Origin: Chloroflexota bacterium
GTDB taxonomy: Bacteria > Chloroflexota > Dehalococcoidia > Lucifugimonadales > SAR202-VII-2
Assembly: GCA_003228115.1 (NCBI GenBank)
Contig: QEVV01000004.1
Location: forward strand, 165,577-229,576
Direction: 5' to 3'
DNA length: 64,000 nucleotides
Part shown: piece after piece, positions 2,200 through 63,844 of the stretch
Numbering within the stretch: position 1 is the stretch's first letter
Layout: each line of letters begins with the position of its first letter
Notes under the pieces: model-generated
Told to the model about the DNA's origin: nothing
The model's input: the letters and a program-made list of their open reading frames with translations, nothing else
The model's database searches: none
Program-made: the position numbers and the translations under genes

Positions 2200-2295
2200 G
2201 GGGTGCAGGGGCAAAGCCCCGCCGGGGGTTCGGGGGAGTCCCCCGACTCCTCAAACGTTCGTAGGGCGGGATCGGGTGGGACCACAACGTTAGCC
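2200..2295 (+). repeat. Family-A structured intergenic element, copy 1
   Basis: Sequence gggtgcaggggcaaagccccgccggggg..tcgggggagtcccccga..aacgttcgtagggcgggatcgggtgggac; shares the consensus with 15 other copies. Confidence 0.85.
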
Positions 2296-2425
2296 CTTAG
2301 AAGACCGTCCGACACTAGCCTCCACCCTTATTGGCGGGCTAGCCCTGCTAAGAGGGCCCTCTCCCTTGCAGCGCCCGCCGGGATACACTAACGTAGCTTC
2401 ACTACTAACAAGTTGGAGGTCGGCC

Positions 2426-3595
2426 ATGGTAGAAGCAGCCAAGAAAACACTCCGTATCGACGCTGACAGTCACTTTCAACCCCTCCTAGACCACGACTCT
2501 CTGTCCGTCCTGCTGCCAGACTTCGAGCCAAGGCTCGTGGACATGATCGCACGGGACGCCGCCGTCTTCTCTGACCCCAATGCACGTGGCGGGGGCTTCA
2601 GTGGCTCGGCAGCAGGCCAGCAGGTGGGAGCCTTGGTGGGCGGCATCGCTGCCCCAAAGAGTTCTGGGCCCATAGGCCACGCTGAGTTCGAAGAGCGCGC
2701 CAAGCTGCTTCCTGCGACCGGATTCGACATGCAGGTGCTCATCCCTGATGGCGTTTTCTTGGAGAAGCCCTTCAAGTCGCCGATTGAGGTGGCCGAGTCA
2801 GGGATCGACCCTCTCATCCGCTACGCGCTGTGCGTCGGTTATAACAACGCCGTATCCCAGGCGCAGACCACCTTGGCCAACACCTTCATCGGCGGGGCGC
2901 TGGTCCCCTTCGGCGGTGGCACCGTGCAACAGTGCTGCGACGAAGCCATCAGAGGCGTCAAGGAACTGGGCCTCAAGGCCATCGTCATCAACGACAACTG
3001 GGCGGGCCGCAACTACGATTCGCTTGACCTGTACCCCTTCTGGCAAACCGTCAACGACCTGAACGTGCCGATCATCGTGCACCCTGCCCCCTTTGCCTGC
3101 CAGGTCACAGACCATGTGCCTCGCACCTATCGTCTGGGCTGGGAACGCATGCGGCGTCTACACATCAGCAACTACTTGGGCTTCGCCTTTGAGTATATGG
3201 TGGCCCTCGCCAGCCTCACCCTGGGCGGCGTATTCAAAGAGTTCCCCAACCTCCGCTTCTGTTTCTACGAGGCTGGCGGCTCCTGGCTTCCTTGGGTCAT
3301 GTTCACTCTTGACCACACCTACAATGTGGAGCGCCAGTGTGCTCGCTGCGACATACCCCCCAGCGAGCAGATCATGAAGTCTTGCTTCATCGCCGTGGAG
3401 CCCTACGAAGAACCCATCGTCGGGACCATTGCACAGGTGGGAAGCAAGAATTTCCTCGTGGGCAGCGACTACCCCCACCCACCCTCCACCTTCCCCAACA
3501 CCGCCGTAGGAATCGAACGGCTGGAGGGCCTGACGCAGCAAGACAAGGACAACATCCTGGGCATCAACGCTCGGGCCGTTTTCCAGGTTCCCTAA
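2426..3595 (+). CDS. amidohydrolase family protein (PF04909/ACMSD-like metal-dependent hydrolase)
   Basis: N-terminal IDADSHF metal motif and C-terminal VGSDYPHP motif. Start moved to ATG 2426, which is preceded by GGAGG at 2415-2419. Confidence 0.85.
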   Translation: MVEAAKKTLRIDADSHFQPLLDHDSLSVLLPDFEPRLVDMIARDAAVFSDPNARGGGFSGSAAGQQVGALVGGIAAPKSSGPIGHAEFEERAKLLPATGFDMQVLIPDGVFLEKPFKSPIEVAESGIDPLIRYALCVGYNNAVSQAQTTLANTFIGGALVPFGGGTVQQCCDEAIRGVKELGLKAIVINDNWAGRNYDSLDLYPFWQTVNDLNVPIIVHPAPFACQVTDHVPRTYRLGWERMRRLHISNYLGFAFEYMVALASLTLGGVFKEFPNLRFCFYEAGGSWLPWVMFTLDHTYNVERQCARCDIPPSEQIMKSCFIAVEPYEEPIVGTIAQVGSKNFLVGSDYPHPPSTFPNTAVGIERLEGLTQQDKDNILGINARAVFQVP

Positions 3596-3608
3596 CGCAT
3601 CTCGAAAC

Positions 3609-3653
3609 AAAGAAACAGGCCCATCCAATGTTGGATGGGCCTGTTTCTTTTGG
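3609..3653 (+). terminator. intrinsic terminator
   Basis: Perfect 19-bp stem aaagaaacaggcccatcca / tggatgggcctgtttcttt, followed by a T-rich tail. Confidence 0.8.
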
Positions 3654-3808
3654 ACATCCGAGTCTAATTTTACCTATTGAGCCTCAATGGAAGGCCCTAT
3701 AAGCTTCCCGGAAAAGGCGGCTATGGCAGGGCTCCCAAGGTACATCATTGCCAAAACCGTCCTCCTGGCGCAGCATAACAACATCGCTATCTGACAAAGG
3801 CCAATCCC

Positions 3809-4126
3809 TTGATCAAAAAACGCAACATGTTCGGTCAGGTCCTGTGGTTCGTAAGTACGCTTGGCCTCTACGGCATTTATTGGGTGTACACCAGCTTCTC
3901 AGAGATGAACGACTACCTGCAGTTGGGAGAGAATCCAGCCCTTCTGACCGTCCTCTCGTTTATCCCGTTTCTCAACTACTACGCCCTCTATAAGCACGCT
4001 GAGGCCGTGGAGTCCCTCTCGGAAGGAAGCGTCAACAAGGTACTCATGTTCGTTGTGTGGGTAGTCTTCTCACCAGCAGCGTGGTTCATCACTCAAATGG
4101 AACTGAACAAACGAGCGACGGCCTAG
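3809..4126 (+). CDS. small membrane protein (DUF4234-like)
   Basis: 105-aa ORF with the GLYGIYWVY motif and hydrophobic helices. An alternative ATG lies at 3827. Confidence 0.5.
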   Translation: MIKKRNMFGQVLWFVSTLGLYGIYWVYTSFSEMNDYLQLGENPALLTVLSFIPFLNYYALYKHAEAVESLSEGSVNKVLMFVVWVVFSPAAWFITQMELNKRATA

Positions 4127-4171
4127 ACTCGGCGTGTAACATCGCCTAGTTGAGCAAGGCCGCTGTTTTGT

Positions 4172-4200
4172 TTGCGCCCCTCCCGTGTCTTCGTTACAAT
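4172..4200 (+). promoter_or_regulatory. candidate sigma-70-type promoter of the mrp cluster
   Basis: TTGCGC (4172-4177), a 17-bp spacer, then TACAAT (4195-4200), about 57 bp upstream of the mnhE start. Confidence 0.35.
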
Positions 4201-4213
4201 GCGTTCCACCTTG

Positions 4214-4240
4214 CGCCCCTAGCCACAGATGGTAGGGGCG
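4214..4240. repeat. REP-like hairpin (CGCCCCTA / TAGGGGCG)
   Basis: 8-bp perfect inverted repeat with an 11-nt loop in the mnhE leader. It shares the GTAGGGGCG head with families C and D. Confidence 0.6.
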
Positions 4241-4256
4241 TTTCCAGAGAGGAATC

Positions 4257-4850
4257 GTGGCCCAAGCCCCGGACGTCAAACGCAGCCGACGTCGCAGAAT
4301 TATCTTCATAGCCGCTCAGGCCATCTTCCTTTACGCCTTCTGGCTAGGCCTCTCCGGACGAACTAGGCCGTTGGAATTGGTAATGGGGCTCTTCGCCGTG
4401 GCCTTGGTCGTCACCATGACCAGCCATGTCGCTGAGTCTCATCACCCCGAAGGATCGGCGCTCCCCGGCACCCACCCGGAGCAGTTTCGGCCCTTTCGCC
4501 TACTCATGTATTTCCCATGGTTGCTCCTGCAGATTGTCAAAGCCAACCTAGAAGTGGCCTACCTGGTGCTGCACCCGGGGCACTTGAATCCTGTGCTGGT
4601 GGAGTTTCGCACGACCCTCCACAGCGAAGCGTCGCAGGTCCTGTTGGCGCACTCCATTACCCTCACACCAGGGACCATTACCATAGATGTCCATGATGGC
4701 CGTTACCTGGTGCACGCCATCACACCCGAATCTGCGGAATCGCTCTTCCAAGGGCACATGCAGCAGCGAGTGCAGCAGATCTTCGGCCTCGACCCAGAGC
4801 CGCCCACGGAGTTCACGATCACACGTGACCCTCATGAGGTGCACGTGTGA
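4257..4850 (+). CDS. mnhE: Na+/H+ antiporter subunit E (MnhE/MrpE/MbhA-like)
   Basis: Carries LLLQIVKANLEVAYLVL.P...P.LVEF.T.L.S......LAHSITLTPGT..IDV, the MnhE signature. GTG start. Confidence 0.85.
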   Translation: MAQAPDVKRSRRRRIIFIAAQAIFLYAFWLGLSGRTRPLELVMGLFAVALVVTMTSHVAESHHPEGSALPGTHPEQFRPFRLLMYFPWLLLQIVKANLEVAYLVLHPGHLNPVLVEFRTTLHSEASQVLLAHSITLTPGTITIDVHDGRYLVHAITPESAESLFQGHMQQRVQQIFGLDPEPPTEFTITRDPHEVHV

Positions 4851-6405: not shown

Positions 6406-6479
6406 GTCAGCCAGCCACAGAAAGACCGATAACAAGCGACGAGGCGGCGTCAAATAACAATCAGCCCTCTGCCATTGCA

Positions 6480-6575
6480 GGGGTGCAGGGGCGCAGCCCC
6501 GCCGGGGGTCACAGGGGGTGTCCCCCTGTACCAAAGACGTTAGAGGGTGGGCCGGACGGGACAACAGCGTTAGCC
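6480..6575 (+). repeat. Family-A structured intergenic element, copy 2 (inside the mrp cluster)
   Basis: Sequence gggtgcaggggcgcagccccgccgggggtcacagggggtgtccccctgta..gacgttagagggtgggccggacgggac. Confidence 0.85.
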
Positions 6576-6663
6576 CATCCAAGCCGCTAGCAAACCGATA
6601 CGCAAATGGAAAAAGCCCCTTAGGGGCTACAGAATTACCACGCCAGGGGGAAAAGGACGATCC

Positions 6664-12131: not shown

Positions 12132-12206
12132 GCCCCCGTAGCTCAGGGGATAGAGTGCTGGCCTCCGGAGCCAGAGACGGGAGTTCGAATCTCCCCGGGG
12201 GTACCA
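12132..12206 (+). tRNA. tRNA-Arg (anticodon CCG)
   Basis: Cloverleaf readable by eye. Acceptor gcccccg/cgggggt, D-arm tagctcaggggatagagtg, anticodon stem-loop ctggc-CTCCGGA-gccag, T-arm gggagttcgaatctccc, encoded CCA. Confidence 0.9.
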
Positions 12207-13360
12207 CCTTTCTCCTGTAGGGTTGGATCAAACTCCCGCGGGGTTTGGGATGGTTTACCCGAGCGCAGGAGCCTCAGTGGAGAGAACTCCTCAAGCTCCC
12301 CTAAAAGATCGTACTGCACGTATCGATCCGTTACACCCCCAGAGGCGTGTCCGAGCAACCTTTGGGCTACGTCCAACCGTCTTGAGAAGCGAAATACCCA
12401 CGTAGCGAACGTATCTCTAACGTCGTATGCGGCAGCCTCCACGCTAGCCTGCCTCAACATGGCCCTGAGGACATCCCCAATGCCACGAGAACTCAGCGGA
12501 AGTCCGTTCTTTACGGCCCGAAAGACAGTTTCGTCGTCAGCAAGGACTCCCCCCAGGCCACCAAGTAACGCCATGGTCTCCGGCAGCACCGGCGAGGGCG
12601 TCCGCCTGGGCTGGCCACTCCGCCTCTTCTGTCGCCGGTTAATAAGACGATCGTCTCCGACCCTTCGCACATCACCTGCGGTAAGCCTTGATTGCTCTAT
12701 CGGACGCCATCCGTGCCCAAAGGCCAAATGCCAAATTGCTTGATCCCTCGGGGATTTTTCGAGGGCGTCAACAGCCGCTGCCTCTCTGCCTCCCAGAGGA
12801 TTCGGTCCCGCCGAATCTACGCTGTCCTTAGACGGAGGGGCAACCGGGTTTCTCTCTAGCAGCCGCATAGAATCAATGGCATGCTGGTAGAGCCGTCGAA
12901 GGCTTGATTGTCGATTGAACCGCGTACGCCCGGTCGAGCCAGTCCAATGAAATTCCAAGAACTCTCGGATAGGCTGCCACTCCACCGGTAGAAAACGGAA
13001 TTCTCGCGCAAAAGGACCCCAGGCCTTCTGCCCCTCAGTAACGGCAGGCCTATGATCATTAAAGAGCAACTCCCTAACTAGGTCGTCAACGACATCGTTC
13101 GTCGGTATCGGGTGGTGGGCATTACTGACTGGCGGTGGCTGGGCAGGACGAACAAGTCCAAGGCACTCCCAGGTCGCTTTATGTAGCCGACCTCCTTCGT
13201 AACAATAGCCGAATGACGCCTGGGGCCAAGGCATTCCGAGAAGGGGATGAGGAGGAACACCCCAAAGCGGGGATTGCGTTGCAAACGTTGAAGATGAAAT
13301 TGGCCGACCTCCTCTACCAGTGAAATCCCCAAGTGGGCCGTTCGCAAAGTAACGACCCAT
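12143..13360 (-). mobile_element. tyrosine recombinase / phage-type integrase
   Basis: Box I GWRPIE, box II YDVRDTFATW, and LLGHASGGVTDRYV (His...Tyr nucleophile). The last 21 sense codons plus the stop (12143-12208) run antisense over the tRNA-Arg gene. The N-terminal start is uncertain. Confidence 0.8.
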
Positions 13361-13565
13361 TTAATTCTAATGGATCCCTGCCGCCACCCACCAACGCGGA
13401 AAAACCCTCACCTTCAAAAGCCTCCATGAACATCGGGACTTAGCGTTGTTGATCCCCCATCTTGACCTCTGCAATGCTGATTGCCGTAGCCTTTGCTGAA
13501 TTTGGGTTGCCCGCGAAGCCCGCCGCCGCATCGCTGTCACCGAACCGATGGGGGGGGTCCTGGAC

Positions 13566-13595
13566 GGGGAGATCGACTCTCCCCCGTCTCCACCA
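13566..13595 (+). repeat. tRNA 3'-end-like fragment (T-arm + acceptor strand + CCA)
   Basis: ggggag-atcgact-ctcccc T-arm-like hairpin, then cgtctcc-a-cca. No matching 5' half lies upstream. 14 nt resemble the tRNA-Arg T-loop region with 2 mismatches. Confidence 0.5.
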
Positions 13596-13611
13596 TGAAC
13601 ACAACAGGCTC

Positions 13612-13642
13612 GCGCTAGGTGGCTAGCGCCTTGAGTTTTTCT
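13612..13642 (+). terminator. intrinsic terminator-like hairpin after the tRNA-like fragment
   Basis: Stem-loop gcgctag-gtgg-ctagcgc, followed by cttgagtttttctttc. Confidence 0.45.
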
Positions 13643-13696
13643 TTCGTAGACCGCCTTTCGAGCCAGCCGTTTCTCAGAGGGGTATAGTATTATCCC

Positions 13697-14143
13697 ATGA
13701 GGCTTTTGTGGGTAATTCCTCTAGGAGCCGCCTCGGCCACTGCCGCCAACGCGGTTTTCTACTACTTAGTTACCGCTGGCTTTGGCGAAGAATTTCTTTT
13801 TCCGAATCAGTTCCCTCCGCCGGACCTGGCAGCCATGCCCGTGAACGACGTGATCATCTTCAGCGTGATTTTCTCTCTTGGCGCTGGGATCGTATTTGCC
13901 CAGGTCTCCAACCTAGCTAGAAAGCCCATTCGGATCTACCTAGTAATCGCCATTGTGACGCTCTTCCTCTCATTCGCTGTTCCCCTGAGTATCTCCTCAC
14001 CCCCAGTAGCCATGTCACACAAGCTCGTCCTCGTTGCTCTGCATGTTTTGGGTGCCATGGGTGTCGTCGGCACTCTCGTAGCCCTTGGTAGAGGAAATAA
14101 TCGTGGCAATCCTGGCCAGGCGGATGCAGAATTACGGGCATAG
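13697..14143 (+). CDS. four-TM membrane protein of unknown function
   Basis: 148-aa ORF with four clear hydrophobic helices. No recognisable catalytic motif. Confidence 0.5.
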   Translation: MRLLWVIPLGAASATAANAVFYYLVTAGFGEEFLFPNQFPPPDLAAMPVNDVIIFSVIFSLGAGIVFAQVSNLARKPIRIYLVIAIVTLFLSFAVPLSISSPPVAMSHKLVLVALHVLGAMGVVGTLVALGRGNNRGNPGQADAELRA

Positions 14144-14264
14144 CTCAGTAGATGGCTGGAAGCTAACGGAAAGGCCTGCAGGCACAACACGACGGTCGAA
14201 TCAAAAGGGCAGTAATGGGTGGCTCAGTAATCCTCAGGTTGTGAATATCAGGGGGTTCTAGGTC

Positions 14265-14450
14265 TTACCTAGCTATCCCCTGATGCAAGTCGGAACGCCA
14301 CGGTCTTGCCACTCCCATCACGCGACAGATCTCCGCCTTCGAATCACCTTGGAACTTTAGCGCCTTGGCCCTGGCTTTTCGGGCCTCCGATGATGTGCCG
14401 TCCCAGGGTACTTGTGTGTGGTCTCGCCTTTGCCGCTTCTTTCGAGCCAC
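14265..14450 (-). pseudogene. possible helix-turn-helix remnant of a recombinase or transposase
   Basis: 61-aa basic ORF. The KAEICRVMGVARPW segment looks like an HTH. It is isolated inside the island. Confidence 0.2.
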
Positions 14451-14542
14451 TACAGGCCGACTGTTTCTGGAACTTTCAGAGACCCCTGTCCGTCTGGAGA
14501 AAGTTGAACTGGTTTAGCAGCGCTCCTATTGGAGGACACTTC

Positions 14543-15283
14543 ATGAAAAGGTGTCTGTTAGTGCTTTTAGGACTTGCACCCTTGCTGGTGGCGGCTGTGG
14601 GTTGTGCCGGCGTCCTGAGCACTCCCACCCGGACGCCAATTCCATCGCCCACACCAGCCCCGCTCAAGGAATGGGTGTGGAAGGCGTTGGTGTGGAGGAT
14701 ACCACCGTTACGGTGCTGCTGCGGGTATACGCAGGTGTTGATGTCCAAGTGACCTTGGATGGCCAAGATGCTGACCAGGTCGAGGGTCCTCCGCCTATCC
14801 TTCGATACGTTTTTGAAAACGTGGCCCCTGGAACATATGAGGCGCAGGTAAGGGACGTGGTAGGCCACCATGAGAACCTTGAAGTTGTGGTGCCCCAGGT
14901 CGCTGAGCCCGCCGTCAGCTTCAATGACTTGTTTGCCAGCCCGGACACATACAGGGGAACCGAGATCTTGCTTGAGGGATTCTTCTTCATGGGGACTGAG
15001 ACCATTGTATTGAGCGAGCTGCTTGAGCCCTCCGGTCAGGCCGCCGGACACGTATGGCCCAAGGGACGCATGGTATGGGTGGAAGGCTCAATTCCATCTG
15101 ATATCTATGGACGGCCTCTACCAACAAATAGTAATTGGGCCATTGGAGCGCTATGGAAGCGTGCTGGTGAGAGGCCGCTTTGAGCACGGGGGTCGGTATG
15201 GGCATACGGGAGCCTTCGAGTCCCAGGTCGTTCTCACCGAGATGGAGTTGTTGCCGTGGTCGCCGCCACCGGGGCAAGGTTAG
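14543..15283 (+). pseudogene. lipoprotein gene disrupted by two frameshifts
   Basis: A lipobox signal peptide MKRCLLVLLGLAPLLVAAVGCAG begins at 14543. The body continues in another frame (ORF 14551-15183) from about 14660. The protein-like C-terminus returns to the first frame from about 15110 (ORF 15023-15283). Confidence 0.45.
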
Positions 15284-15345
15284 TCCCTAGGAAGCCCCTA
15301 TTTTTAGAACTGGCAAAGAACAAAGCTTAGGTGAGAGGCGATGTG

Positions 15346-15368
15346 GGTGGTGGAGCTGGAGGTCGAAT
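15346..15368 (-). repeat. tRNA-Ala-like 3'-end fragment, copy 1 (direct repeat)
   Basis: ggtggtggagctggagg+tcgaat; the reverse complement reads attcga..cctccagctccacca (T-loop, acceptor strand, CCA). Confidence 0.6.
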
Positions 15369-15722
15369 GTGGTCGCCTAGTCGACTGGTTGAACGGCTCG
15401 CAGAGTTGCTGGGAGCGTAGATTGAGCATCGCACCAACCTAGTACTGCTCCGCCAGACCCGTGAGCCAACAGTCGGTTAGGCAGCGTGCGAGCCTATTGG
15501 ACCAACTTGGTAGGAAGCGGCCCTCATTGAGCCCCATCGCGATTCGGGCCTCCCAGACTGGCTTCAACTCAGCGAATCCTGTGGCTGCATATGTGACTAC
15601 TTCCGCCAGGGCCGTGGGCTAGTCTGGCTTGGTGGCCTGCCTACAAAGCCACGTTCAAAGACCTTTTCTTGCGAATGTTTTCATGCTACAGTCCACTCAA
15701 AAGAGGCTCGCTTATTGGATAA

Positions 15723-16673: not shown

Positions 16674-16856
16674 GATGGGGAAAGCACTGGGTTTGGGACC
16701 GCCGAAAGAAGAGCGGGGGATCCAGCCTGGAGTTTTTCAGCAGCCTGCTAGTGAAGGGCCTGATGCTACAGGCCAGAGCTACGAGTGGCAGAGTGAGGCC
16801 AACAGTAAAGGGAGCGGAGCGCTCGTGCCGGCCCCGCTGTCAGCAAGATTGGAGCG

Positions 16857-16889
16857 AAGGCCCCTCATAACGAGGGGCTTTCTTTTTAA
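16857..16889 (+). terminator. intrinsic terminator
   Basis: aaggcccctc-ataac-gaggggctt stem-loop followed by tctttttaa. Confidence 0.5.
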
Positions 16890-17054
16890 TAACGAGAACG
16901 TTCTCTGCCAGCATAAGCTCGACAACAGGCTGTGGTAGACTGCCGTATCAGCACAGCGGGTCAAGTCAAACCTACTAGGTTCAGCACCAAGCGCCAGTGT
17001 GTGTAGCCAGCGCTAGGAGGCGGACCGCTCGGTTACTAACGCAAGGAGGGAAAG

Positions 17055-26279: not shown

Positions 26280-26555
26280 AGCGGCCACTCCAACCTGTTC
26301 ACCGCGGGTGCAGGGGCACAGCCCCGCCGGGGGAGTGGGGGTGTCCCCCACACAACTAAACGTTCGAGGGCGGCGGGTGGGAAAGCAGCCTCAGCCACAC
26401 CGAACCTTCAGGCAAACAGCGGCCACTCCAACCTGTTCACCGCGGGTGAAGGGGCACAGCCCTGCCAGGGGAGTGGGGGTGTCCCCCACACACAACTAAA
26501 CGTTCGAGGGCGGGTGGGACAACAGCCTCAGCCACACCCAACCGCTCGCCCTCAG
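26280..26555 (+). repeat. 138-bp tandem duplication, each unit containing a family-A element (copies 5 and 6 at 26306-26396 and 26444-26534)
   Basis: agcggccactccaacctgttcaccgcgggtg... occurs at 26280 and again at 26418. Confidence 0.85.
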
Positions 26556-41216: not shown

Positions 41217-41238
41217 CAGCAAGCAGGAGGGCGCTCGG

Positions 41239-41333
41239 GGGGTGCAGGGGCGGCGCCCCGCCGGGGGCTCGGGGGTGTCCCCCGAAACCAAAAACATTAG
41301 CGGGTGGGCTGGGAGGGACAGCCAGCGCCAGCC
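41239..41333 (+). repeat. Family-A element, copy 9
   Basis: Sequence ggggtgcaggggcggcgccccgccgggggctcgggggtgtcccccga..aacattagcgggtgggctgggagggac. Confidence 0.85.
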
Positions 41334-41400
41334 ACCCCCAGCCCTATGCGGCTGCCAAGGGCTCTCCACCCGCTCGGCTGACCACCAATCGCTACAAAGA

Positions 41401-47386: not shown

Positions 47387-47694
47387 TCGTTATCCTCTTT
47401 CCTACAAAATCTGCGCCATGATAAACTACCGCCCACTCACATGCAAGCAGAGTCGGCAGGCGGAGGGAGACCAAATCTATCAGCATCTACGGCTACATTC
47501 TAAGGCCCAAGCGAACCGCCACGCTAGTGCTACGAGACCCGTCCCTTCATCACACCCAGGGTACCTTCGCTAGCCGCGCTCAATAGCCGCTCGAAAGGGC
47601 GTTCCGGGTTGAAAGCAACGTAGCCAACGCAAGCCACTAGAGAACGAACACACCCCGCGGCTAGACGACAACACCACTCCCTGTGCCGCGGGCT

Positions 47695-47770
47695 GGGGTG
47701 CAGGGGCAAAGCCCCTCCGGGGGGCAAGGGGGACGTCCCCCTCTTTACCAAAACGTTCGATGGTGGGCCC
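47695..47770 (+). repeat. Family-A element, copy 10 (3' part degenerate)
   Basis: Sequence ggggtgcaggggcaaagcccctccggggggcaagggggacgtccccctc..aaaacgttcgatggtgggcc. Confidence 0.75.
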
Positions 47771-47873
47771 TAAGCCTGCCGAAGGGATGGGCCGGGCAGA
47801 AAGCAGCGTAGGCCAAGGCAGGAGAAACACACCCGTCTGGTAGACAATAACGCCACCCTCCACGCCTCCACCT

Positions 47874-50280: not shown

Positions 50281-50310
50281 GGGCGGTGTCTCAGACCCGC
50301 CCAAAACGTC
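50276..50310. repeat. Family-D REP-like hairpin
   Basis: Sequence ggtaggggcggtgtctcagacccgcccaaaacgtc, overlapping the coxL-like stop codon. Confidence 0.75.
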
Positions 50311-50696
50311 CGCCTTGCGCATCCAGCCATCATCCAGGAGCTGCCTCCAATGTCGTTTCGAGCGGAGCCAAGAAACCTTGTCAACCAACCCGAAACACAT
50401 TCTTTTTACTGTCGTCCTTCTTGCTGTCGTCCTAGAGCGTAGCGAAGGACCTTGTCAGCCAGCGCGAGCGTCAGCATGTGATCATCACCATCGTCGGCTC
50501 GGCGTCCCTCAGCAAGCTCAGGACAGGCTCGGCGAAGGACATTCGTCAACCCAGCCAACAGCATTAGCCAACGGCCTCCAACACAGTCGCCGACGCCCTT
50601 CAGAATCCCCATCACCACAGAGCGGGTGTACAATCTATTCGCACAACAGGGAGGGACAGTCTAAGGGACCATGATTCCCCAAAAGCGCCCCAGACT

Positions 50697-50793
50697 GGGG
50701 TGCAGGGGCAAAGCCCCGCCGGGGGTAAAAAAGGGGGTGTCCCCCTTTCTGAAAACGTTAGAGGGCGGGCCGGGAGGGACCTCAACGTCAGCC
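50697..50793 (+). repeat. Family-A element, copy 12
   Basis: Sequence ggggtgcaggggcaaagccccgccgggggtaaaaaagggggtgtcccccttt..aaaacgttagagggcgggccgggagggac. Confidence 0.85.
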
Positions 50794-50876
50794 AAACCAA
50801 CCCTCCGCGCACCCATCTTGCTTGTAGCTGGAGACCGAAGACAACAGCCAATCCAATCCCACGGAGGTACAGACCC

Positions 50877-51348: not shown

Positions 51349-51380
51349 ACGTAGGGGCGTTCAATTGAACGCCCCTACGT
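51349..51380. repeat. Family-C perfect palindrome (32 bp), probable terminator
   Basis: Sequence acgtaggggcgttcaattgaacgcccctacgt, followed by ttgtt. Confidence 0.85.
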
Positions 51381-51527: not shown

Positions 51528-53804
51528 ATGTCAATGGAAAACCTGGATCAGCACCCAGCGCTCAAGGGGCCAACCATTGACCCCAACTTCGAAAGGGAAC
51601 TGAACCAGCTGGTCTCCCTGGCGAAGAAAGGCCAGAAAGCTGACAGCCCCTTCTACAACCCCCCCAACGAATGGCTGATCTCCCGTATGCGCATTCTCCA
51701 GGACCTGCCCCCCAGCGAGCAGCAGGCTGTCCTAGAGGAAGCCGCACGTCTCGCTACAGAAATTGCGGCGGCCAACTCCCAGGGAAAGGCCGCCACCCGC
51801 GCCTGGCCAGAGGTCGTTTTCAGGCTGGAAACCGGCGGCCTGGACTTCTTCAGCCAACTGGGCGTAGCCCGCAGGCCCGACCTAACCCAGTACTTTGTCG
51901 ATGGATTCGCCAAGAACCGCGACGCCCATTCCTTCAACGAAGCCAACCAGGCACTATTCGCTGAGGTCCTGCCCTACATCAATCGCCGTATGGAACAGCA
52001 TTTCGCCGCGGGTGACGGTGTCATCCAGCTCGACCGCCAGATTGGCGACGAGCCCTCACGGGCCTTTCACGCCCGTCAATTGGTCTTCGGCGACCGTTAT
52101 TTGCAGATGCCTTACATGTGGCGTCAGCTCACCTTCGACCTCCCCCCAGAGAAAATGACCGGCGCACCCGACATTCTCGAGGTCTCGCTACCCCGTTGGC
52201 TTGATGACCTGGGACTTCCGGATGAGCTTAAGGGCCGCGTCCGCGAGAGCGGCCTTACGCAACTTGTATTCAAGGCCCCTACCAAGGGGCTATCGCTCCA
52301 TTTGGGCTTCGACTACGTGGGGGAGCACAAGATGGGCCCCCTCTCCATAGCTATGTTCTTGGTTAAAGAACAACAGGGCCTGGCCGTTCAGGCCGCTCTC
52401 AGCGTGGCCAGGATCAGGGCGCTCGACGGCTCGCTGAGGAGTTCGGCCCTGGTTACCGTTGGCCCCTCGCTTCACGGGAAGAGCACCCTGACCGTCATGA
52501 TCGAGCCAAAGGGCAGCGAGCTCGGAGGCCTCCTTGGTTTGTCGGATGACCCGGAAGAAGGCGTCTACCCCATGAACGACGACATCGTGCTCCTTCGTCC
52601 TATGCAGAAGCCGGTAGAGGTCAAGCGAAACGGGCGGACCGTCAAAATCACACACGCCATCGACGGCACGGAGAACAACCTCTACGCCGTACCCTCTGGC
52701 CTCACCTATCAAGACGACCCCGTCACCCATGACGTGCTGAGAGGCACGCCGGGGAGCCCCAACCCCCAAGAGACCCTGGAAAACGTCCCCGTAAACGTCC
52801 AGGGCGGCTCGCCCAACTTCCTGGAGAACCCCGTCCGCAATATGCGAATGGCGCTTTCCCGTCCCCGCCTGCTTGCCCGCAAGGGCGCGGACCACCTGCT
52901 GGAGTCCATCACCCAAGGCCACGCCAAGGAAGGCGTTCACGTTCCTATGGAGTGGATAGACCGGGTCCTCTGGCAGGCCGTCATGCGTCAGAACACGGTC
53001 ATCCCCGCTCTGAGGCGTCTCACCCTCGAACAGTACATTCGAGTGCTCATGTACGGGGAGGCTGTTCAGATGGGGGCCGCCGCAGGGGCCATTGGAAGGC
53101 CCTACGTGGAATACTTCTCAGACCCTTTCATCATCGGCCTGGAAGATGAGAACGCCAATGTTCTGCATGACATCCTGACCCGCATGGCTGAGGGAGGGTT
53201 GCCGCAGGAGTATTACGTCTTCAACACCGGCGGACTGGGTGCCGACACCAATGACGAGGCCAGCGGGAAGCGTTACAAGAAAATCCCAAGGGAGCTGACC
53301 CTCATGCTCCAAGAAGCCCTGCTCCGTGAGGCCGTCAAGTTCGAGCACGATTCCATCCTCGGCTCGGACATCGCCGTCGCCATCGTCGACAGCCAGGGCA
53401 AAGAGATAGTCGATCTCCGGGGCGAGTGGTCCCCCCGGGCCATTTACGGAGATGACGAGTACAGGGCAAGGGTGGAAGAGGTGAAGCGGCGGCGCTACTA
53501 CGGCCGCGATTCCAGCGATAAGGCGGGCATTCTCAGGTACACCAAGGTCTCCAATCCGCTCATTAACCTCGCCGACATCCCGCCGCCTGCAAACGAGCGA
53601 GAGTTGTCCTGGCTCCTCTCCTTCTACTGGAGCGTAGACCAGGCCTGCGACACCCTTGCCGCCTTGATTGAGCACCTCTCAGAGGGCCAGGCCCCAAAGG
53701 CTGACTTCTTGAAGGCGCTCGTTCCAATCACCAAGGCAGCCATCGGCTTGCCGCCGGAGAGCCAAGCTCTGCTCGCGGCATTGGGTCTTACCTCCACCGG
53801 ATAG
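51528..53804 (+). CDS. divergent PEP carboxykinase (ATP)-like P-loop protein with an N-terminal extension of about 300 aa
   Basis: Collinear weak matches to PckA blocks: GPSLHGKSTLT (GLSGTGKTTLS), NDDIVLL (GDDEHGW), ETLENV (LLENV), LTLEQYIRVLMYGE (LTADQTQYHFLSGF), YVFNTGGLG (YLVNTGWNG). Confidence 0.5.
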   Translation: MSMENLDQHPALKGPTIDPNFERELNQLVSLAKKGQKADSPFYNPPNEWLISRMRILQDLPPSEQQAVLEEAARLATEIAAANSQGKAATRAWPEVVFRLETGGLDFFSQLGVARRPDLTQYFVDGFAKNRDAHSFNEANQALFAEVLPYINRRMEQHFAAGDGVIQLDRQIGDEPSRAFHARQLVFGDRYLQMPYMWRQLTFDLPPEKMTGAPDILEVSLPRWLDDLGLPDELKGRVRESGLTQLVFKAPTKGLSLHLGFDYVGEHKMGPLSIAMFLVKEQQGLAVQAALSVARIRALDGSLRSSALVTVGPSLHGKSTLTVMIEPKGSELGGLLGLSDDPEEGVYPMNDDIVLLRPMQKPVEVKRNGRTVKITHAIDGTENNLYAVPSGLTYQDDPVTHDVLRGTPGSPNPQETLENVPVNVQGGSPNFLENPVRNMRMALSRPRLLARKGADHLLESITQGHAKEGVHVPMEWIDRVLWQAVMRQNTVIPALRRLTLEQYIRVLMYGEAVQMGAAAGAIGRPYVEYFSDPFIIGLEDENANVLHDILTRMAEGGLPQEYYVFNTGGLGADTNDEASGKRYKKIPRELTLMLQEALLREAVKFEHDSILGSDIAVAIVDSQGKEIVDLRGEWSPRAIYGDDEYRARVEEVKRRRYYGRDSSDKAGILRYTKVSNPLINLADIPPPANERELSWLLSFYWSVDQACDTLAALIEHLSEGQAPKADFLKALVPITKAAIGLPPESQALLAALGLTSTG

Positions 53805-54106: not shown

Positions 54107-54150
54107 GTTGTCACCTCAGTTCCCTTTACTATTTTGATGCCCACAGGCAT

Positions 54151-54177
54151 GGTAGGGGCGGTGTCTCAGACCCGCCC
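54151..54177. repeat. Family-D REP-like hairpin
   Basis: Sequence ggtaggggcggtgtctcagacccgccc. Confidence 0.75.
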
Positions 54178-55893: not shown

Positions 55894-55930
55894 GGTAGGG
55901 GCGGTGTCTCAGACCCGCCCAAAACGTCGG
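55894..55930. repeat. Family-D REP-like hairpin
   Basis: Sequence ggtaggggcggtgtctcagacccgcccaaaacgtcgg. Confidence 0.75.
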
Positions 55931-59361: not shown

Positions 59362-59397
59362 TCCTCCCCTGTAGACGGGGGAGGATTAAGGTGGGGG
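59362..59397. repeat. Family-B hairpin repeat between thiE and thiS
   Basis: Sequence tcctcccctgtagacgggggaggattaaggtggggg. Confidence 0.7.
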
Positions 59398-60041: not shown

Positions 60042-60048
60042 CGTGTAG

Positions 60049-60990: not shown

Positions 60991-61206
60991 TCTCTCTGCG
61001 ATTTTCGTCACCTTAGCAAAGGGGCAGAAGCCCCGTCAATTACAACACATCGTTGCGAGTCTCGGTACTCCGAAACGTGGCAACCTAGTGGGGCGGGACA
61101 TGCACCGAAGATACCGCCGACGGCGCGGAGAGCACCCGGAGTATATATACCCGGGACAACGGATCTCTCCCTGCCTGCACACCCTCCGCATTCAACATTT
61201 CCCCAG

Positions 61207-61313
61207 CGCCGCAGGCTCGGGTGCAGGGGCAAAGCCCCGCCGGGGATTACAGGGGGCGTCCCCCTGTAACTAAAACATTCGAGGGCGGGCTGGGTGGGAC
61301 AGCGGCCTCCGCC
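61207..61313 (+). repeat. Family-A element, copy 13
   Basis: Sequence cgccgcaggctcgggtgcaggggcaaagccccgccggggattacagggggcgtccccctgtaa..aacattcgagggcgggctgggtgggacagcggc. Confidence 0.9.
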
Positions 61314-61418
61314 ACACCAAACCGCCCGCCCTGGCAGCCCCCCAGATGCTTCGTCGGCAAAAGTCAGTCTAGAGCCAGCGCGTCCAACCGACTCCTCAGC
61401 GTGACAATTTTCCTCCAT

Positions 61419-61524
61419 GCGCCGCAGGCTCGGGTGCAGGGGCGGAAGCCCTGCCGGGGTTACAGGGGGTGTCCCCCTGTAACTAAAACATTCGAGGGCG
61501 GGATGGGTGGGACCTCAGCGTCCG
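61419..61524 (+). repeat. Family-A element, copy 14
   Basis: Sequence gcgccgcaggctcgggtgcaggggcggaagccctgccggggttacagggggtgtccccctgtaa..aacattcgagggcgggatgggtgggac. Confidence 0.9.
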
Positions 61525-61591
61525 TTTTACGAAACCCTCAGCCCACAACGCGCCAATGCACAAAAGCCAATCGTGTCTACGGCAAGCCCTC

Positions 61592-61618
61592 GGGCGGGTC
61601 TGAGACCCGCCCCCTACC
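61592..61618. repeat. Family-D REP-like hairpin (inverted orientation)
   Basis: Sequence gggcgggtctgagacccgccccctacc, about 30 bp downstream of the fdh stop; a probable terminator. Confidence 0.75.
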
Positions 61619-61646
61619 AACCGCCCATCCGGCGACTGCCCCGCCG

Positions 61647-62702
61647 CTACTTCTCGTAAGCTGAGCGATAGCTGGGGCTCACCACCTTGCCCCCGTCCAC
61701 AATCAAGAAGTCCGGGTCCAGCGCCTGCCCTTTGAAGAACCGCTCCAAACAGTCGCCAACGCCGTCGGCGTAGCGCTTCTGCGCCTCCAACGTCGTGCCC
61801 GACACATGGGGCGTCATCGCATGGTTCGGCATAGAACGCCAAGGGTGGTCGGCAGGCGCAGGCTGGGGATACCACACGTCGCCGGCGTACCCGGCAAGCT
61901 GCCCCGACTTCAGCGCCTCAACCAGCGATTCTGCATGCACGATGCGTCCCCGCGCCGTATTGACAACATTCACCCCGCGCTTCATTTTGGCGAACATCTC
62001 CCGGTTGAACATCTCCTGGGTCGCCGGCGTCAGTGGAGCGTTGATGCTCAACACATCGCAGATGGGCAGCATCTTTTCCAGGGGCAGGTAGCGGCAACCC
62101 AGCACCTGCTCCTCCGTCGTCGTCATGCGGCGCTGGTCGTGGTAGTAGACCGTTACGTCGAAGGGCTTCAGCCGCGCGGCAACCCGCTGACCGATGCGGC
62201 CCATGCCAAAGATGCCAACCGTCTTGTCCTCTAAGTCATGCGACCTCGCAGCGACGGTGCCGATGTCCCACAGCCCGTCCACCACCTGCTGGTAAGAGGG
62301 AATGTAGTTGCGAACCAGCGCCAGAGTCATCATGACAACGTGCTCAGCCACGCTGACCACGTTGCTGCCGGTGACCTCTGCCACCGTCACGTTGTGGTCC
62401 GCCGCCGCCGCCAAGTCGAAGTGGTCCGACCCCACGCCCGCCGTCAGCAACAGTTTCAAGTTCGGCGCCTTTTCGATGCGGTCACGCATGACATAAGCAG
62501 GCCAGAAAGGTGTGGCGATGATGACGTCAGCCGTAGGGACATGGGCGTCCAGCCCTGCCCCGGCATCGGTGATCGATACCAACTCATGGCCCGCCGCCTC
62601 CACCATCTCTCGCAGGCCCAGCGCATTCTCGGCGCAACCCAGCAACTCAGGCGTAGTCTTCGCAGCCTCGCCCCCCGGATACAACACAGCAACGATCTTC
62701 AT
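61647..62702 (-). CDS. fdh: NAD-dependent formate dehydrogenase (D-2-hydroxyacid dehydrogenase superfamily)
   Basis: Strong collinear similarity to the Pseudomonas sp. 101 type FDH: PFWPAY, LLLTAGVGSDH.DL, NVTVAEVTGSNV.SVAEHVVM, GRIG, NTARG, LAGYAGDVW.PQPAP.DHPWR.MP, TPH.SGTTL.AQ.RY. Confidence 0.9.
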   Translation of the reverse strand: MKIVAVLYPGGEAAKTTPELLGCAENALGLREMVEAAGHELVSITDAGAGLDAHVPTADVIIATPFWPAYVMRDRIEKAPNLKLLLTAGVGSDHFDLAAAADHNVTVAEVTGSNVVSVAEHVVMMTLALVRNYIPSYQQVVDGLWDIGTVAARSHDLEDKTVGIFGMGRIGQRVAARLKPFDVTVYYHDQRRMTTTEEQVLGCRYLPLEKMLPICDVLSINAPLTPATQEMFNREMFAKMKRGVNVVNTARGRIVHAESLVEALKSGQLAGYAGDVWYPQPAPADHPWRSMPNHAMTPHVSGTTLEAQKRYADGVGDCLERFFKGQALDPDFLIVDGGKVVSPSYRSAYEK

Positions 62703-62860
62703 AACGAGTTCTCCTTACTGGAGCCGGGTAAGGGCCCCTATTCGCGGATAAGTATTTGGATGCCCAACGCCTTTGTATACCTGCCCTGAGGCTGCCTCGT
62801 CAAGCGAAAGCTACCCTGAGAGGCGATCTCAACGCAGGAAGCAGTCTGAAGGAACGGGAT

Positions 62861-62964
62861 TGCGCCGCAGGCGGGGTGCAGGGCGAAGCCCGCCGGGGTC
62901 GCAGGGGTGTCCCCTGCTTCTTAAAACGTTCGAGGGCGGGATGGGTGGGAGCGCGGCGTTCGCC
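62861..62964 (+). repeat. Family-A element, copy 15
   Basis: Sequence tgcgccgcaggcggggtgcagggcgaagcccgccggggtcgcaggggtgtcccctgc..aaaacgttcgagggcgggatgggtgggagc. Confidence 0.9.
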
Positions 62965-63158
62965 GCGCCAATCCGTCCATACAAGCCGAGCTCGCTCCCT
63001 CATCTTCCTTGGCGCAACCTCAGCCCCCCTGACCCCACCTGCACAAGCAGGACAACCTCTTCCCTGGCCTTCCAGGGAGCCGTGTTCTGGCAGGTGGCAG
63101 CGGAGTGCGGAAGAACCCATCCTTTTGCTGCTACAGACCACCAGCTGGAATACTCACC

Positions 63159-63611
63159 CTACTTACCGCTCCTCATCCACTGCTCGTGCGACGGGACCTC
63201 TTCACCTATTACATGAAGGAAGTAGTAGGCCCCCATGTTGCCTAGGAAGTTGAACTCCTTACGCAAGTTTTTAACCAGCGTCTCGAAGTCAGGAAAGGAG
63301 CGCAAATAGGTCTGGAAGGAACCGTGCTTCGCCTGTAGATCTATCAGCTTCTCGGCATTGCTGACCACCGCCTCCAGTTTCTTGCGGTTGCGGATTACCC
63401 TGGTGTCGACGACAAGCTCGTCGATCTCTGGTGGCGACATAGAAGCCACAGCCTCGATATCAAAGTTGTGAAAGGCCTCCCGGGTGCCCGGCCACTTGGA
63501 CTCCACAACCTTCCAGGAAATGCCTGCCTGGAAGGCGGCCTTGCTCATGACGTCCAGGTAATCGCCCAGCGCCCGCGGAACAACCTGGTCTGGGGCTTGC
63601 ATATCAGGCAT
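63159..63611 (-). CDS. tag: DNA-3-methyladenine glycosylase I family (Tag-like) protein
   Basis: FQAGISW..V..KW...REAF..FD...VA.M...EI..L.....VIRNR.K..A...NA matches the Tag HhH core. The N-terminal Zn-snap Cys/His residues of E. coli Tag are not evident. Confidence 0.7.
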   Translation of the reverse strand: MPDMQAPDQVVPRALGDYLDVMSKAAFQAGISWKVVESKWPGTREAFHNFDIEAVASMSPPEIDELVVDTRVIRNRKKLEAVVSNAEKLIDLQAKHGSFQTYLRSFPDFETLVKNLRKEFNFLGNMGAYYFLHVIGEEVPSHEQWMRSGK

Positions 63612-63754
63612 GAGTTGCTCCTCCGTAAGTCGAATCTACCAGCAGGCTACCCCTTCCCAGAGGGTCGCCGCAATATCCGGGCGGCAACTCGCACCGCCTT
63701 GGCATCGAGAAGCATCCAAGGGGTGAGTCCAGCAATGGGCGCTAGCCCGCTTCC

Positions 63755-63844
63755 GGGGTGCCGGGGCAGAGCCCCGCCGGGGTTCGGGGTGTCCCCGATA
63801 CCTAAAACGTTTGCGGGCGGGTCGGGCGGGTCCGCGGCGCTAGC
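63755..63844 (+). repeat. Family-A element, copy 16
   Basis: Sequence ggggtgccggggcagagccccgccggggttcggggtgtccccga..aaaacgtttgcgggcgggtcgggcgggtcc. Confidence 0.85.

Follow-up and report, generated by a model that had tools for sequence, protein, structure and literature searches.

In the stretch of 64,000 nucleotides analysed here (the window), from a marine Chloroflexota bacterium of the Dehalococcoidia, a structured repeat occurs about once per 4 kb, and every copy lies on the + strand. This raises the question of what the repeat is and what sets its orientation: the neighbouring genes, a transcript of its own, or the replication of the DNA that carries it.

Copies of the repeat and their age

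The copies were located with two models. An nhmmer search with an HMM of the copies recovered 15 full copies (E values of 1e-16 to 3e-28), and its best match on the - strand had an E value of 2.6. A covariance model (CM) with filters off found the identical 15 copies at 43-89 bits, together with two weak extra + matches (36108-36165 and 37120-37201); its top - strand score in the window was 12.7 bits. The claim of the sequence-only reading that the copies occupy one strand thus holds by both methods, and the census comprises 15 full copies, a truncated copy and a degenerate 17th copy. They are listed below, where a strict G4 motif is the short-loop motif (G3+N1-3)x4.

2197..2313, + strand, full copy flanked by a HAAS-domain gene (+) and an amidohydrolase gene (+); nhmmer 81.5 bits; CM 2202-2288, 68.9 bits; strict G4 motif 2264-2280
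6477..6594, + strand, full copy in the mnhB-mnhC gap of the mrp operon, sense to the operon; CM 84.7 bits
22947..23057, + strand, full copy, member 1 of a tandem pair between an epimerase gene (-) and an MFS transporter gene (+); CM 72.7 bits
23118..23229, + strand, full copy, member 2 of this pair; CM 67.7 bits; strict G4 motif 23180-23195
26303..26414, + strand, full copy, unit 1 of a 138-nt tandem duplication, neighbours HtrA-like protease gene (+) and H+-pyrophosphatase gene (+); CM 73.9 bits
26442..26552, + strand, full copy, unit 2 of this duplication, with three G tracts only; CM 59.3 bits
35953..36062, + strand, full copy, antisense to its two neighbours, a response-regulator gene (-) and an ORF (-); CM 67.6 bits
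36102..36165, + strand, truncated copy with H1 and the beginning of H2 only; nhmmer 36102-36140, E 0.045; CM 15.5 bits
37120..37201, + strand, weak, degenerate 17th copy (GGGGAGCGCCCC..ACAGGGAATGTCCCTGT..GGGCAAAACGGGCAGGGCAGCGGCGGGG) flanked by two - strand ORFs; CM 15.6 bits, E 0.09
41238..41348, + strand, full copy flanked by convergent amidohydrolase genes; CM 75.5 bits; strict G4 motif 41302-41317
47693..47810, + strand, copy with an insertion of ~25 nt in the G-tract region, member 1 of a pair between divergent CoxS-like (-) and molybdopterin dehydrogenase (+) genes; nhmmer 56.5 bits, CM 43.3 bits
47871..47986, + strand, full copy, member 2 of this pair; CM 80.5 bits; strict G4 motif 47936-47951
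50695..50806, + strand, full copy between + genes at 48028-50280 and 51528-53804; CM 78.3 bits; strict G4 motif 50763-50778
61216..61330, + strand, full copy (5′ extension from 61207), member 1 of a pair that is antisense to its two neighbours, thiG (-) and a 2-hydroxyacid dehydrogenase gene (-); nhmmer 93.9 bits, CM 87.4 bits; strict G4 motif 61283-61298
61429..61547, + strand, full copy, member 2 of this pair; CM 88.9 bits; strict G4 motif 61496-61511
62872..62983, + strand, full copy flanked by the 2-hydroxyacid dehydrogenase gene (-) and a methyladenine glycosylase gene (-); CM 73.3 bits; strict G4 motif 62934-62949
63752..63866, + strand, full copy upstream of the methyladenine glycosylase gene (-), the run going on in contig L148; CM 68.6 bits; strict G4 motif 63815-63830

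The units of the 138-nt duplication are 96% identical, the 26-nt flank included. Three starts given earlier (61207, 61419 and 62861) take in a shared 5′ extension of 12-15 nt (GCGCCGCAGGC..); the true cores of these copies start at 61220, 61433 and 62875. A 27-nt stretch of the consensus has 6 matches at ≤3 mismatches versus 0 expected. All copies in the window are intergenic, and the spurious ORFs attributed to them were found as two clusters of 69 and 55 ORFs that traverse copies. The 17th copy, the covariation of the first hairpin (H1) and the G-quadruplex-type tract had been overlooked in the sequence-only reading. The window also contains GTAG-tagged palindromes of other families (21891, 26217, 51350; 50276, 54150, 55894, 61592).

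Outside the window, the CM gave 92 matches in 45 sources, exclusively Dehalococcoidia/Chloroflexota assemblies. The metagenome contig L148 is identical to 62619-64000 and carries 9 further copies past the window end, all on the + strand. Because the same copies were recovered in separate assemblies of other samples (L121-L124, L144, L148 and L153), they are no assembly artefact, a concern that had been raised when the element was first noticed.

Outside tandem pairs, the window copies are ~76% identical to one another (0.76); tandem partners are more alike (0.81-0.90). With tandem pairs set aside, similarity shows no fall with distance (Spearman 0.07), so the shared orientation is not due to local copying. 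A chance of 1 in 33,000 had been put on this uniformity under random orientation. The uniformity stands, but the figure overstates independence because five sites are tandem pairs, and ~12 independent sites give ~1 in 2,000. Copies have also been gained or lost. The population variant L144 has one copy where the window has two (the 22947/23118 pair). L109, whose MnhD is 89% identical to that of the window, holds orthologues of two window copies (2197..2313, partly degenerate, and 6477..6594) and two extra + copies. Across the same 21 kb, L112-L120 (MnhD 83-85% identical) have zero copies, also at the 6477..6594 site. Neither a clean empty site nor a target duplication was visible at gained or lost sites, where the boundaries are blurred by age. 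The window copies are old, largely vertically inherited relics, local tandem duplications excepted.

Structure of the unit

The repeat measures 85-115 bp. Its core is ~85 nt, and conservation fades ~25 nt past the last G tract, which extends the unit to ~110 nt. Its 5′ part begins with G-T, followed by H1, composed of GCA, stem, loop, complementary stem and (T)GC. After CGGGG comes the second hairpin (H2), whose top, GGGG(G)-TGT-CCCC(C), is invariant and sits on a variable base of 3-5 bp. Next, a linker rich in A and with AACGTT at its end leads to four G tracts with loops of 1-3 nt and then to GAC-A-nC-rGCG. The 3′ half, ~40 nt, is non-palindromic. Reading of the sequence revealed no inverted counterpart of the 5′ end (GGGTGCAGG) at the 3′ side of the unit. 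A 3′ hairpin is unsupported (14 folded 3′ halves, z -1.8 to +1.9 with a mean of about +0.1 versus shuffles), and the G tract has no supported complementary arm.

The compensatory changes described earlier at the base of the hairpin were confirmed statistically. In H2, 91.9% of cells are paired versus 74% in shuffles, and 66 cells carry double changes versus 20.5; none of 500 shuffles reached either observed value. When H1 and H2 were taken together in 90 distinct copies, double changes occurred at 12 of 16 pairs and covariation was 0.257 versus 0.086 (0/500 shuffles), with slid controls at ≤0.068. H1 stems differ wholly by lineage (GGGGC/GCCCC, GAGGGC/GCCCTC, AGGAAC/GTTCCT and GGGAACC/GGTTCCC). 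Both hairpins are under constraint.

Strict G4 motifs are present in 9 of the 15 full window copies and in 15 of 24 copies from other lineages. In a soil subfamily, 0 of 52 distinct copies carry one, because the third tract is GG. Quadruplex formation by the repeat is predicted: G4-aware folding puts a G4 in 11 of 14 copies.

Orientation and its possible causes

The copies lie in ++, --, convergent and divergent gene contexts, and all four of these arrangements, reported before from the open reading frames, were verified with genes supported by Pfam. GC skew of the window + strand is negative whichever way the genes point (-0.065 for + genes, -0.113 for - genes). Of 19 independent metagenome contigs of the window lineage, 18 carry the G-rich strand of the repeat on their C-skewed strand (p = 7.6e-5); counted by copies, this is 44 of 46. 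Across 14 genomes, orientation is concordant with skew at 26 of 35 loci (p = 0.006), or at 17 of 20 when OZ253584.1 is left out. Multi-copy loci are uniform in 16 of 17 cases; all five window clusters are head-to-tail, and one head-to-head doublet occurs in L158. In OZ253584.1, a soil genome, the copies switch from ++ to -- in the interval 1.16-1.19 Mb, at the sign change of the skew. Its young, near-identical copies number 13+/1- in one replichore and 7+/6- in the other; insertion in this genome is not strictly polar.

Replication direction is taken here from GC skew alone, as a proxy; a search for markers of ori or ter located none. By the usual rule, the C-skewed strand is the leading-strand template. 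The G-rich strand of the repeat would then lie on the leading-strand template, so that its C-rich complement with the two hairpins is on the lagging-strand template. With this proxy, our data support that the orientation of the copies follows the replication strand and not transcription. A replication-strand link had been suggested from the window, and the flip of orientation with skew sign across independent contigs bears it out. Uniform orientation relative to replication, and not to neighbouring genes, suggests that the repeat acts at the DNA level rather than as RNA.

In our best reading, this is a new DNA repeat akin to REP and PATE, with a polarity set by the replication strand. We propose, with a little less than even confidence, a previously undescribed family of interspersed DNA repeats of the Dehalococcoidia (Chloroflexota), non-coding, non-autonomous and replication-strand-polarised, that would have spread via single-stranded DNA. 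Most likely this spread would have used a single-stranded intermediate at the replication fork, and the two hairpins may have given a grip to an enzyme of the HUH/Y1 type, which recognises hairpins and would be encoded elsewhere. If copies in the wrong orientation were also purged, this could have added to the polarity.

It is conceivable, although rather unlikely, that the polarity comes from selection and not from insertion, the repeat being tolerated or useful in only one orientation through the effects of its hairpins and G tracts at the fork. On the lagging-strand template, for instance, which DnaB helicase encircles, such a hairpin or a G-quadruplex could do harm. Alternatively, the host could use the repeat as a polar signal, and mobilisation would then be separate and non-polar. 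The window has 11 strict G4 motifs on the + strand and 0 on the - strand, 9 of the 11 within copies, and the G tracts are kept despite variable loops (C 31, T 26, others); together with the predicted quadruplexes, this speaks for selection. Additionally, old copies are almost perfectly polar and the youngest copies of OZ253584.1 are mixed in one replichore, as predicted by purging over time, and different species have kept orthologous copies, one of which lies within the mrp operon. On the other hand, the soil subfamily lacks the canonical motif and yet CBDDDS is concordant with skew in 6 of 7 cases. The strict motif is absent from 6 of 15 window copies, G4 formation is a prediction only, and relatives with 83-85% protein identity manage with no copy at all in the corresponding 21 kb. 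We know of no function that requires one unit per 4 kb. Selection could also go further, and it seems improbable but worth stating that the repeat is a polar structured element of genome architecture and more than a relic of strand-specific transposition. As a pair of hairpins joined to a quadruplex-capable tract, it would be kept on the leading-strand template about every 4 kb by selection for an effect that it has, or has to avoid, at the replisome. If true, the repeat would be, in a major lineage of marine bacteria, the structured equivalent of polar signals such as Chi and KOPS.

Readings at the RNA level fare less well. The sequence-only reading had also offered a small-RNA family, that is, RNA genes of ~95-110 nt transcribed from the + strand. 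Two covarying hairpins and a single strand within the window suit such genes, but we consider them very unlikely. An Rfam scan of the window returned only two tRNAs at gathering score and no match to the copies even at E ≤10, and a scan of 7 copies revealed neither a sigma-70-like promoter nor an intrinsic terminator. None of the copies is covered by a metatranscriptome contig, though adjacent genes are covered at a depth of 2-4, shallow enough that absence is weakly shown; no RNA run contains 61200-61560. G·U pairs and A·C mismatches are similarly rare (39 and 30 of 1324 pair cells), so there is no G·U excess. An RNA gene would have no reason to be oriented by GC skew, as the copies are, and one copy per 4 kb is far above any sRNA family known to us.

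Cis-acting mRNA elements of the kind suggested for REP sequences (stabilisers, attenuators or terminators) have a slimmer chance still. The copies are strictly intergenic, one is in sense orientation in the mrp operon, and their hairpins are GC-rich and stable. However, three sites hold five copies that run antisense to the genes on either side, others lie between convergent or divergent genes, and orientation goes with skew and not with genes. Neither hairpin is followed by a T run on either strand; H2 has an A-rich stretch after it on the + strand and a T-rich stretch before it on the - strand. H2 as an intrinsic terminator (GC-rich hairpin plus T run) was rejected, given this lack of a T run and the negative scan at 7 copies.

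Sites for site-specific recombination of folded single strands, such as integron-like attC/VCR-type sites, have hardly any probability. attC sites function as folded single strands with a replication-strand preference. Like attC and Vibrio VCR (~60-140 bp), the repeat forms structured, co-oriented units, here across tens of kb, in which pairing is kept over sequence; covariation is Watson-Crick only, and a tyrosine recombinase gene is located at 12143-13360. Unlike them, the unit is not an end-to-end imperfect palindrome, has no R′′/R′ cores (RYYYAAC/GTTRRRY) and delimits no cassettes. Between copies lie housekeeping genes in both orientations, syntenic across species, and the recombinase sits at a tRNA-Arg island without copies.

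Coincidence, local duplication or assembly artefact can be dismissed: the tandem pairs are local duplications, with a one- versus two-copy variant in L144, but the distance test beyond these pairs, the independent assemblies and the skew concordance of 18 of 19 contigs refute this explanation.

Mobilisation and comparison with known systems

A mobilising gene was sought in the window and in related DNA. Pfam detected no Y1/HUH domain among 50 window ORFs, and phmmer with two approximate Y1 queries gave no match in ~10,500 ORFs (related DNA of ~1.5 Mb in total, covering little of each genome). No other candidate mobilising gene or transposase was found in the window or in this ~1.5 Mb. The 16 nt upstream of 49 window-type copies hold ≤0.48 bit per position, which indicates no conserved 5′ target. 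Of the IS200/IS605- or RAYT-like spread suggested earlier, the link to orientation is retained, but the mechanism is not supported by a Y1/HUH gene, a 5′ target, a 3′ hairpin or a clean empty site.

REPs are single palindromes of 20-40 nt with a GTAG or CGTC tag, typically in inverted pairs, and are mobilised by RAYT (TnpA-REP), a Y1 HUH protein (PMC2817692, PMC3116915, PMC3333891, PMC3733652). Like REP/BIME/REPIN, the repeat is high-copy, intergenic only, non-coding, often clustered and built of GC-rich hairpins (PMC2817692, PMC3116915, PMC3333891, PMC3733652), and it is inherited vertically with lineage-specific bursts. It differs from REPs in its length of 85-110 nt, its two different hairpins with a non-palindromic G-tract half and the absence of a tag, and from the inverted pairs of REP/BIME in that its clusters are head-to-tail and polarised with GC skew.

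IS200/IS605 elements have their top strand on the lagging-strand template (PMC5027513, PMC6006769). The repeat shares with them and with the ORF-less PATEs the lack of terminal inverted repeats, conserved hairpins and a fork-linked orientation (PMC5027513, PMC6006769); an orientation bias relative to replication, as in PATEs, is seen with GC skew as the proxy. In contrast to these elements, no tnpA/tnpB with repeat ends and no conserved 5′ target tetranucleotide were found, the hairpins are at one end only, and the ends are not sharply defined. Because a 3′ hairpin is unsupported, the two-ended hairpin layout of IS200/IS605 is missing. A MITE mobilised by a DDE enzyme was rejected, as there are no terminal inverted repeats and no target-site duplication is visible at boundaries blurred by age.

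Chi and KOPS/SRS are words of 5-8 nt that are overrepresented on the G-rich leading strand and recognised as duplex or by RecBCD/FtsK. The repeat resembles them in its G-rich sequence and its orientation by replichore, but is a structured unit of 85-110 nt on the C-skewed strand. E. coli HPG1/HPG2 occur in a handful of copies, often paired on opposite strands, with no replication polarity reported (PMC5100583). Like the repeat, they recur in intergenic DNA and have both a G4-capable tract and the potential to form a hairpin (PMC5100583).

Copies and structure of the repeat

The window was searched with an HMM built from the copies listed by the sequence-only reading. This search returned 15 full copies of the repeat (E-values of 1e-16 to 3e-28) and a truncated copy at 36102–36140, all on the plus strand, and no match better than E = 2.6 on the minus strand of the window. 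With filters off, a covariance model that includes the two hairpins recovered the same 15 full copies in the window at 43–89 bits. It also gave two weak matches:

36108–36165, plus strand: truncated copy
37120–37201, plus strand: degenerate 17th copy

The top minus-strand score of this model was 12.7 bits, and weak minus-strand matches lay mostly over plus-strand copies, often at the palindrome of the second hairpin (H2). The initial list of copies thus holds as to strand, while its starts at 61207, 61419 and 62861 take in a common 5′ extension of 12–15 nt. About 3% of the window consists of this roughly 100-nt repeat. Nine further copies, all on the plus strand, are found in a metagenome contig that is identical to window positions 62619–64000 and extends 13.3 kb past the window end. 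Because independent assemblies from other samples carry the same copies, an assembly artefact, considered at the outset, is ruled out. Short-read assemblies are broken by the copies, where contigs end. As first noticed, the copies give rise to many spurious ORFs, and these contaminate protein databases.

The anatomy was determined from a comparison of the window copies with 75 others taken from related genomes. The 5′ part comprises G-T, the first hairpin (H1, GCA-stem-loop-stem′-(T)GC), CGGGG and H2, which has a variable base of 3–5 bp below an invariant GGGG(G)-TGT-CCCC(C) top. The 3′ part comprises an A-rich linker ending in AACGTT, four G tracts separated by loops of 1–3 nt, and GAC-A-nC-rGCG, with conservation fading about 25 nt further on. 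H1 stems are wholly lineage-specific (GGGGC/GCCCC, GAGGGC/GCCCTC, AGGAAC/GTTCCT, GGGAACC/GGTTCCC). The compensatory changes reported from the sequence are backed by pair counts for both hairpins. H2 was counted on its own in 48 distinct copies, each cut to an ungapped 25-nt slice: 91.9% of cells were paired compared to 74.0% in shuffles, and 66 double-change cells were observed compared to 20.5; none of 500 shuffles reached the observed value, and slid controls were far lower. For H1 and H2 together, 90 distinct model-aligned copies showed double changes in 12 of 16 pairs and a covariation of 0.257 versus 0.086 (0 of 500 shuffles), figures that lean towards structure, given the relatedness of the copies and an alignment fitted to the model. 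A long 3′ hairpin between the G tracts and a downstream C-rich arm, seen by eye and in single RNA folds, was rejected: DNA folds of 14 window 3′ halves were no stabler than dinucleotide shuffles, and the C-rich arm is absent from distant lineages.

The G tracts of 9 of the 15 window copies fit the strict (G3+N1-3)x4 pattern. Strict short-loop motifs of this kind occur 11 times on the plus strand of the window, 9 of them inside copies, and never on the minus strand. For 11 of 14 copies, G-quadruplex-aware folding predicts use of the quadruplex. No copy of the soil subfamily has the motif, its third tract being GG, so that the quadruplex is frequent and not defining.

An insert of about 25 nt, GCCTGCCCTGAGC(A/T)YGCCGAAGGG (shorter in the window version), is located at differing positions in three copies:

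47693–47810 of the window: copy with insert
4100–4316 of the related locus L109: copy with insert
6837–6942 of L109: copy with insert

The insert was rejected as a repeat family of its own, as no other copy occurs in the window.

Gene context and orientation

Pfam scans of 50 ORFs confirmed that the copies lie strictly between genes and that every gene arrangement is represented.

Flanking genes of the plus-strand copies (Pfam)
2200; 6480; 26306/26444; 50697, plus strand: both genes on plus
35957/36107; 61207/61419; 62861, plus strand: both genes on minus
41239, plus strand: convergent genes
22949/23118; 47695/47874, plus strand: divergent genes

Copy 6480 lies within the mrp operon, between mnhB and mnhC. 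The sole recombinase of the window is a tyrosine integrase (12143–13360, minus strand) whose gene abuts tRNA-Arg (12132–12206). Beyond it, third-position GC is low (0.55–0.58 compared to 0.7 or more elsewhere), and 12132–22000 looks like an integrated island with no repeat copy inside. In L109, the corresponding site behind the mrp operon is occupied by another island, which encodes a serine recombinase. Four Amidohydro_2 paralogs (2366–3595, 18495–19439, 40173–41216, 41459–42505) share 22–60% identity among themselves and with many paralogs in related loci, and so make up a large paralog expansion; they recur beside repeats in relatives simply because they are so abundant.

The plus-strand GC skew is negative across the whole window, with −0.065 in plus genes and −0.113 in minus genes. 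As it is negative in both, it is of the replication type, and transcription contributes little to it. Since assemblies orient contigs arbitrarily, copy orientation against skew sign makes a fair test. With copies masked, 19 independent contigs from the lineage of the window were scored, and in 18 of them (p = 7.6e-5) the repeat's G-rich strand was found on the C-skewed strand; counted by copy, concordance was 44 of 46 (about 96% polar with respect to GC skew). The reference genomes and relatives, 14 genomes in all, gave 26 concordant loci of 35 (p = 0.006), and orientation was uniform in 16 of 17 multi-copy loci. On OZ253584.1, the complete chromosome of a soil relative, 13 of 14 copies are plus in the negative-skew arc (2.98 Mb across zero to 1.16 Mb), and orientation flips to minus-minus at 1.19 Mb, where the skew becomes positive; the remainder of the positive-skew arc holds 7 plus and 6 minus copies. 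Polarity is thus pronounced in the lineage of the window and holds elsewhere as a general trend, without being absolute. The only inverted arrangement met in this lineage is a rare head-to-head doublet in the related locus L158 (10199–10358), where two partial copies overlap at the H2 palindrome.

Our data show a structured intergenic DNA repeat whose orientation follows GC skew and not the genes. The proposed link to the replication strand is supported by proxy, with GC skew standing for replication direction; the positive-skew arc of OZ253584.1 is mixed. The leading strand is usually the G-rich one; by this rule, the repeat's G-rich strand would be the leading-strand template and its C-rich complement would lie on the lagging-strand template. 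The two loci flanking the skew switch of OZ253584.1 contained no origin markers. Local spread was rejected as the cause of co-orientation, as similarity does not drop with distance.

Occurrence, turnover and neighbouring repeats

Sequencing runs containing the window are marine or seawater metagenomes. In a pattern scan of reference genomes, true members were found solely in Dehalococcoidia/Chloroflexota assemblies; the HMM does not recognise the pattern matches in Streptomyces and other high-GC genomes. The relatives found in this way, the marine source and the amidohydrolase paralog expansion suggest that the window comes from a SAR202-type marine Dehalococcoidia. Window copies share about 76% identity, a level exceeded only by tandem partners (0.81–0.90). 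L109, with 89% identical MnhD, carries orthologues of the copies at 2200 and 6480 and two extra plus copies, and the corresponding 21 kb of relatives at 83–85% MnhD identity is free of copies. L144, a population variant of window 21003–23546 (99% identical, 168 nt shorter), has a single hybrid copy in place of the tandem pair 22949/23118, due either to unequal recombination between neighbours or to short-read assembly collapse. These differences indicate that the family gains and loses copies. In the empty-site comparison of orthologous loci, the flanks were too diverged to give ends, targets or duplications. Comparison of DNA-run contigs with the window for precise excisions gave only chimeric joints, due to other family copies.

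Separate from this family is a 30-nt perfect palindrome, CGTAGGGGCGTTCAATTGAACGCCCCTACG, which bears the GTAG tag typical of classical REP and occurs at 21891–21920, 26217–26246, 39939–39968 and 51350–51379. Two tandem 76-nt units (21740–21891, 78% identical), each opening with GTAGGGG, directly precede its first copy. A second GTAG-tagged hairpin repeat, GGTAGGGGCGGTGTCTCAGACCCGCCC, is found in both orientations, unlike the family studied here (50276–50302, 54150–54177 and 55894–55920, plus; 61592–61619, minus). Another hairpin repeat, CCTCCCC..GGGGGAGGATTAAGG, forms an inverted pair (44526–44558 and 59363–59395) and could represent one more repeat conserved in the clade; its tail also lies downstream of a family copy in the related locus L047.

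In soil relatives, a co-repeated segment of about 400 nt lies downstream of family copies; the OZ253584.1 and CBDDDS loci examined contain it at about 30 places (e.g. L001 2626–3070). It opens with a promoter-like TTGCAA-17-TATAGT. The next 190 nt or so have a strong consensus fold (−63 kcal/mol), are too conserved to show covariation, and contain a 68-codon ORF broken by indels. An array of GTAACG or GTTACG units with a 10–11-nt period closes the segment. The segment does not occur in the window and matches nothing in Rfam; it may represent a candidate ncRNA gene or else a second element targeting the repeat.

Mode of spread and likeness to known systems

Given the skew-linked polarity and the covarying hairpins, we tentatively rank first an ssDNA-based spread by an enzyme encoded elsewhere. 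HUH enzymes use hairpins as a handle, and the two hairpins could serve an HUH-type enzyme in this way, the repeat spreading through ssDNA at the fork. Single-strand transposition of IS200/IS605 at the fork yields such polarity (PMC5027513, PMC6006769). In the search for a recurrent neighbour gene as transposase, all-against-all ORF clustering of element-bearing loci gave spurious repeat ORFs and Amidohydro_2 only. IS3/IS5 transposases in two related loci (L050 and L026) and an IS3-type pair in a third (L120) are ordinary insertion sequences untied to copies.

The main rival, which we consider less likely, is that orientation is selected owing to G tracts and hairpins at the replisome; it is favoured by the contrast of old, polar copies with young, partly mixed ones and weakened by the soil subfamily, which has no quadruplex motif.

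If the polarity does reflect selection, the family offers a natural experiment on hairpins and G-quadruplexes meeting the bacterial replisome; if it reflects the mode of spread, the family is a means of finding, in uncultured marine Dehalococcoidia, a new mobilisation system that acts on ssDNA.

We saw no sign of an RNA product, and the small-RNA family proposed from the sequence was not borne out. Rfam gave no match to the repeat in the window or six related loci (gathering and E-value modes), seven scanned copies showed no consensus promoter or terminator, and no T run follows H1 or H2. Metatranscriptome contigs cover neighbouring genes and no copy, and 61200–61560 is present in no RNA run, which is weak evidence at a depth of only 2–4. 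The stems show no excess of G·U (39) over A·C (30) in 1324 cells; these counts show no asymmetry that would indicate the folding strand, and the lack of a G·U excess is more in keeping with a DNA palindrome than with an RNA helix. Readings of the repeat as a small RNA, an mRNA element, an attC-like site or a product of chance are all unlikely.

A literature search with the repeat's sequence words gave nothing relevant. Interspersed hairpin repeats are common in bacteria; to our knowledge very few are replication-oriented, the clear precedent being the IS200/IS605 family. Of the IS200/IS605- or RAYT-like spread suggested earlier, the polarity stands. The repeat differs from IS200/IS605 derivatives in that it shows neither hairpins at both ends nor a conserved target on its 5′ side; a Y1/RAYT search with two query sequences, covering the window and about 1.5 Mb of related DNA, found no cognate mobilising gene. 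It behaves most like REP/PATE-type repeats and belongs to neither group.
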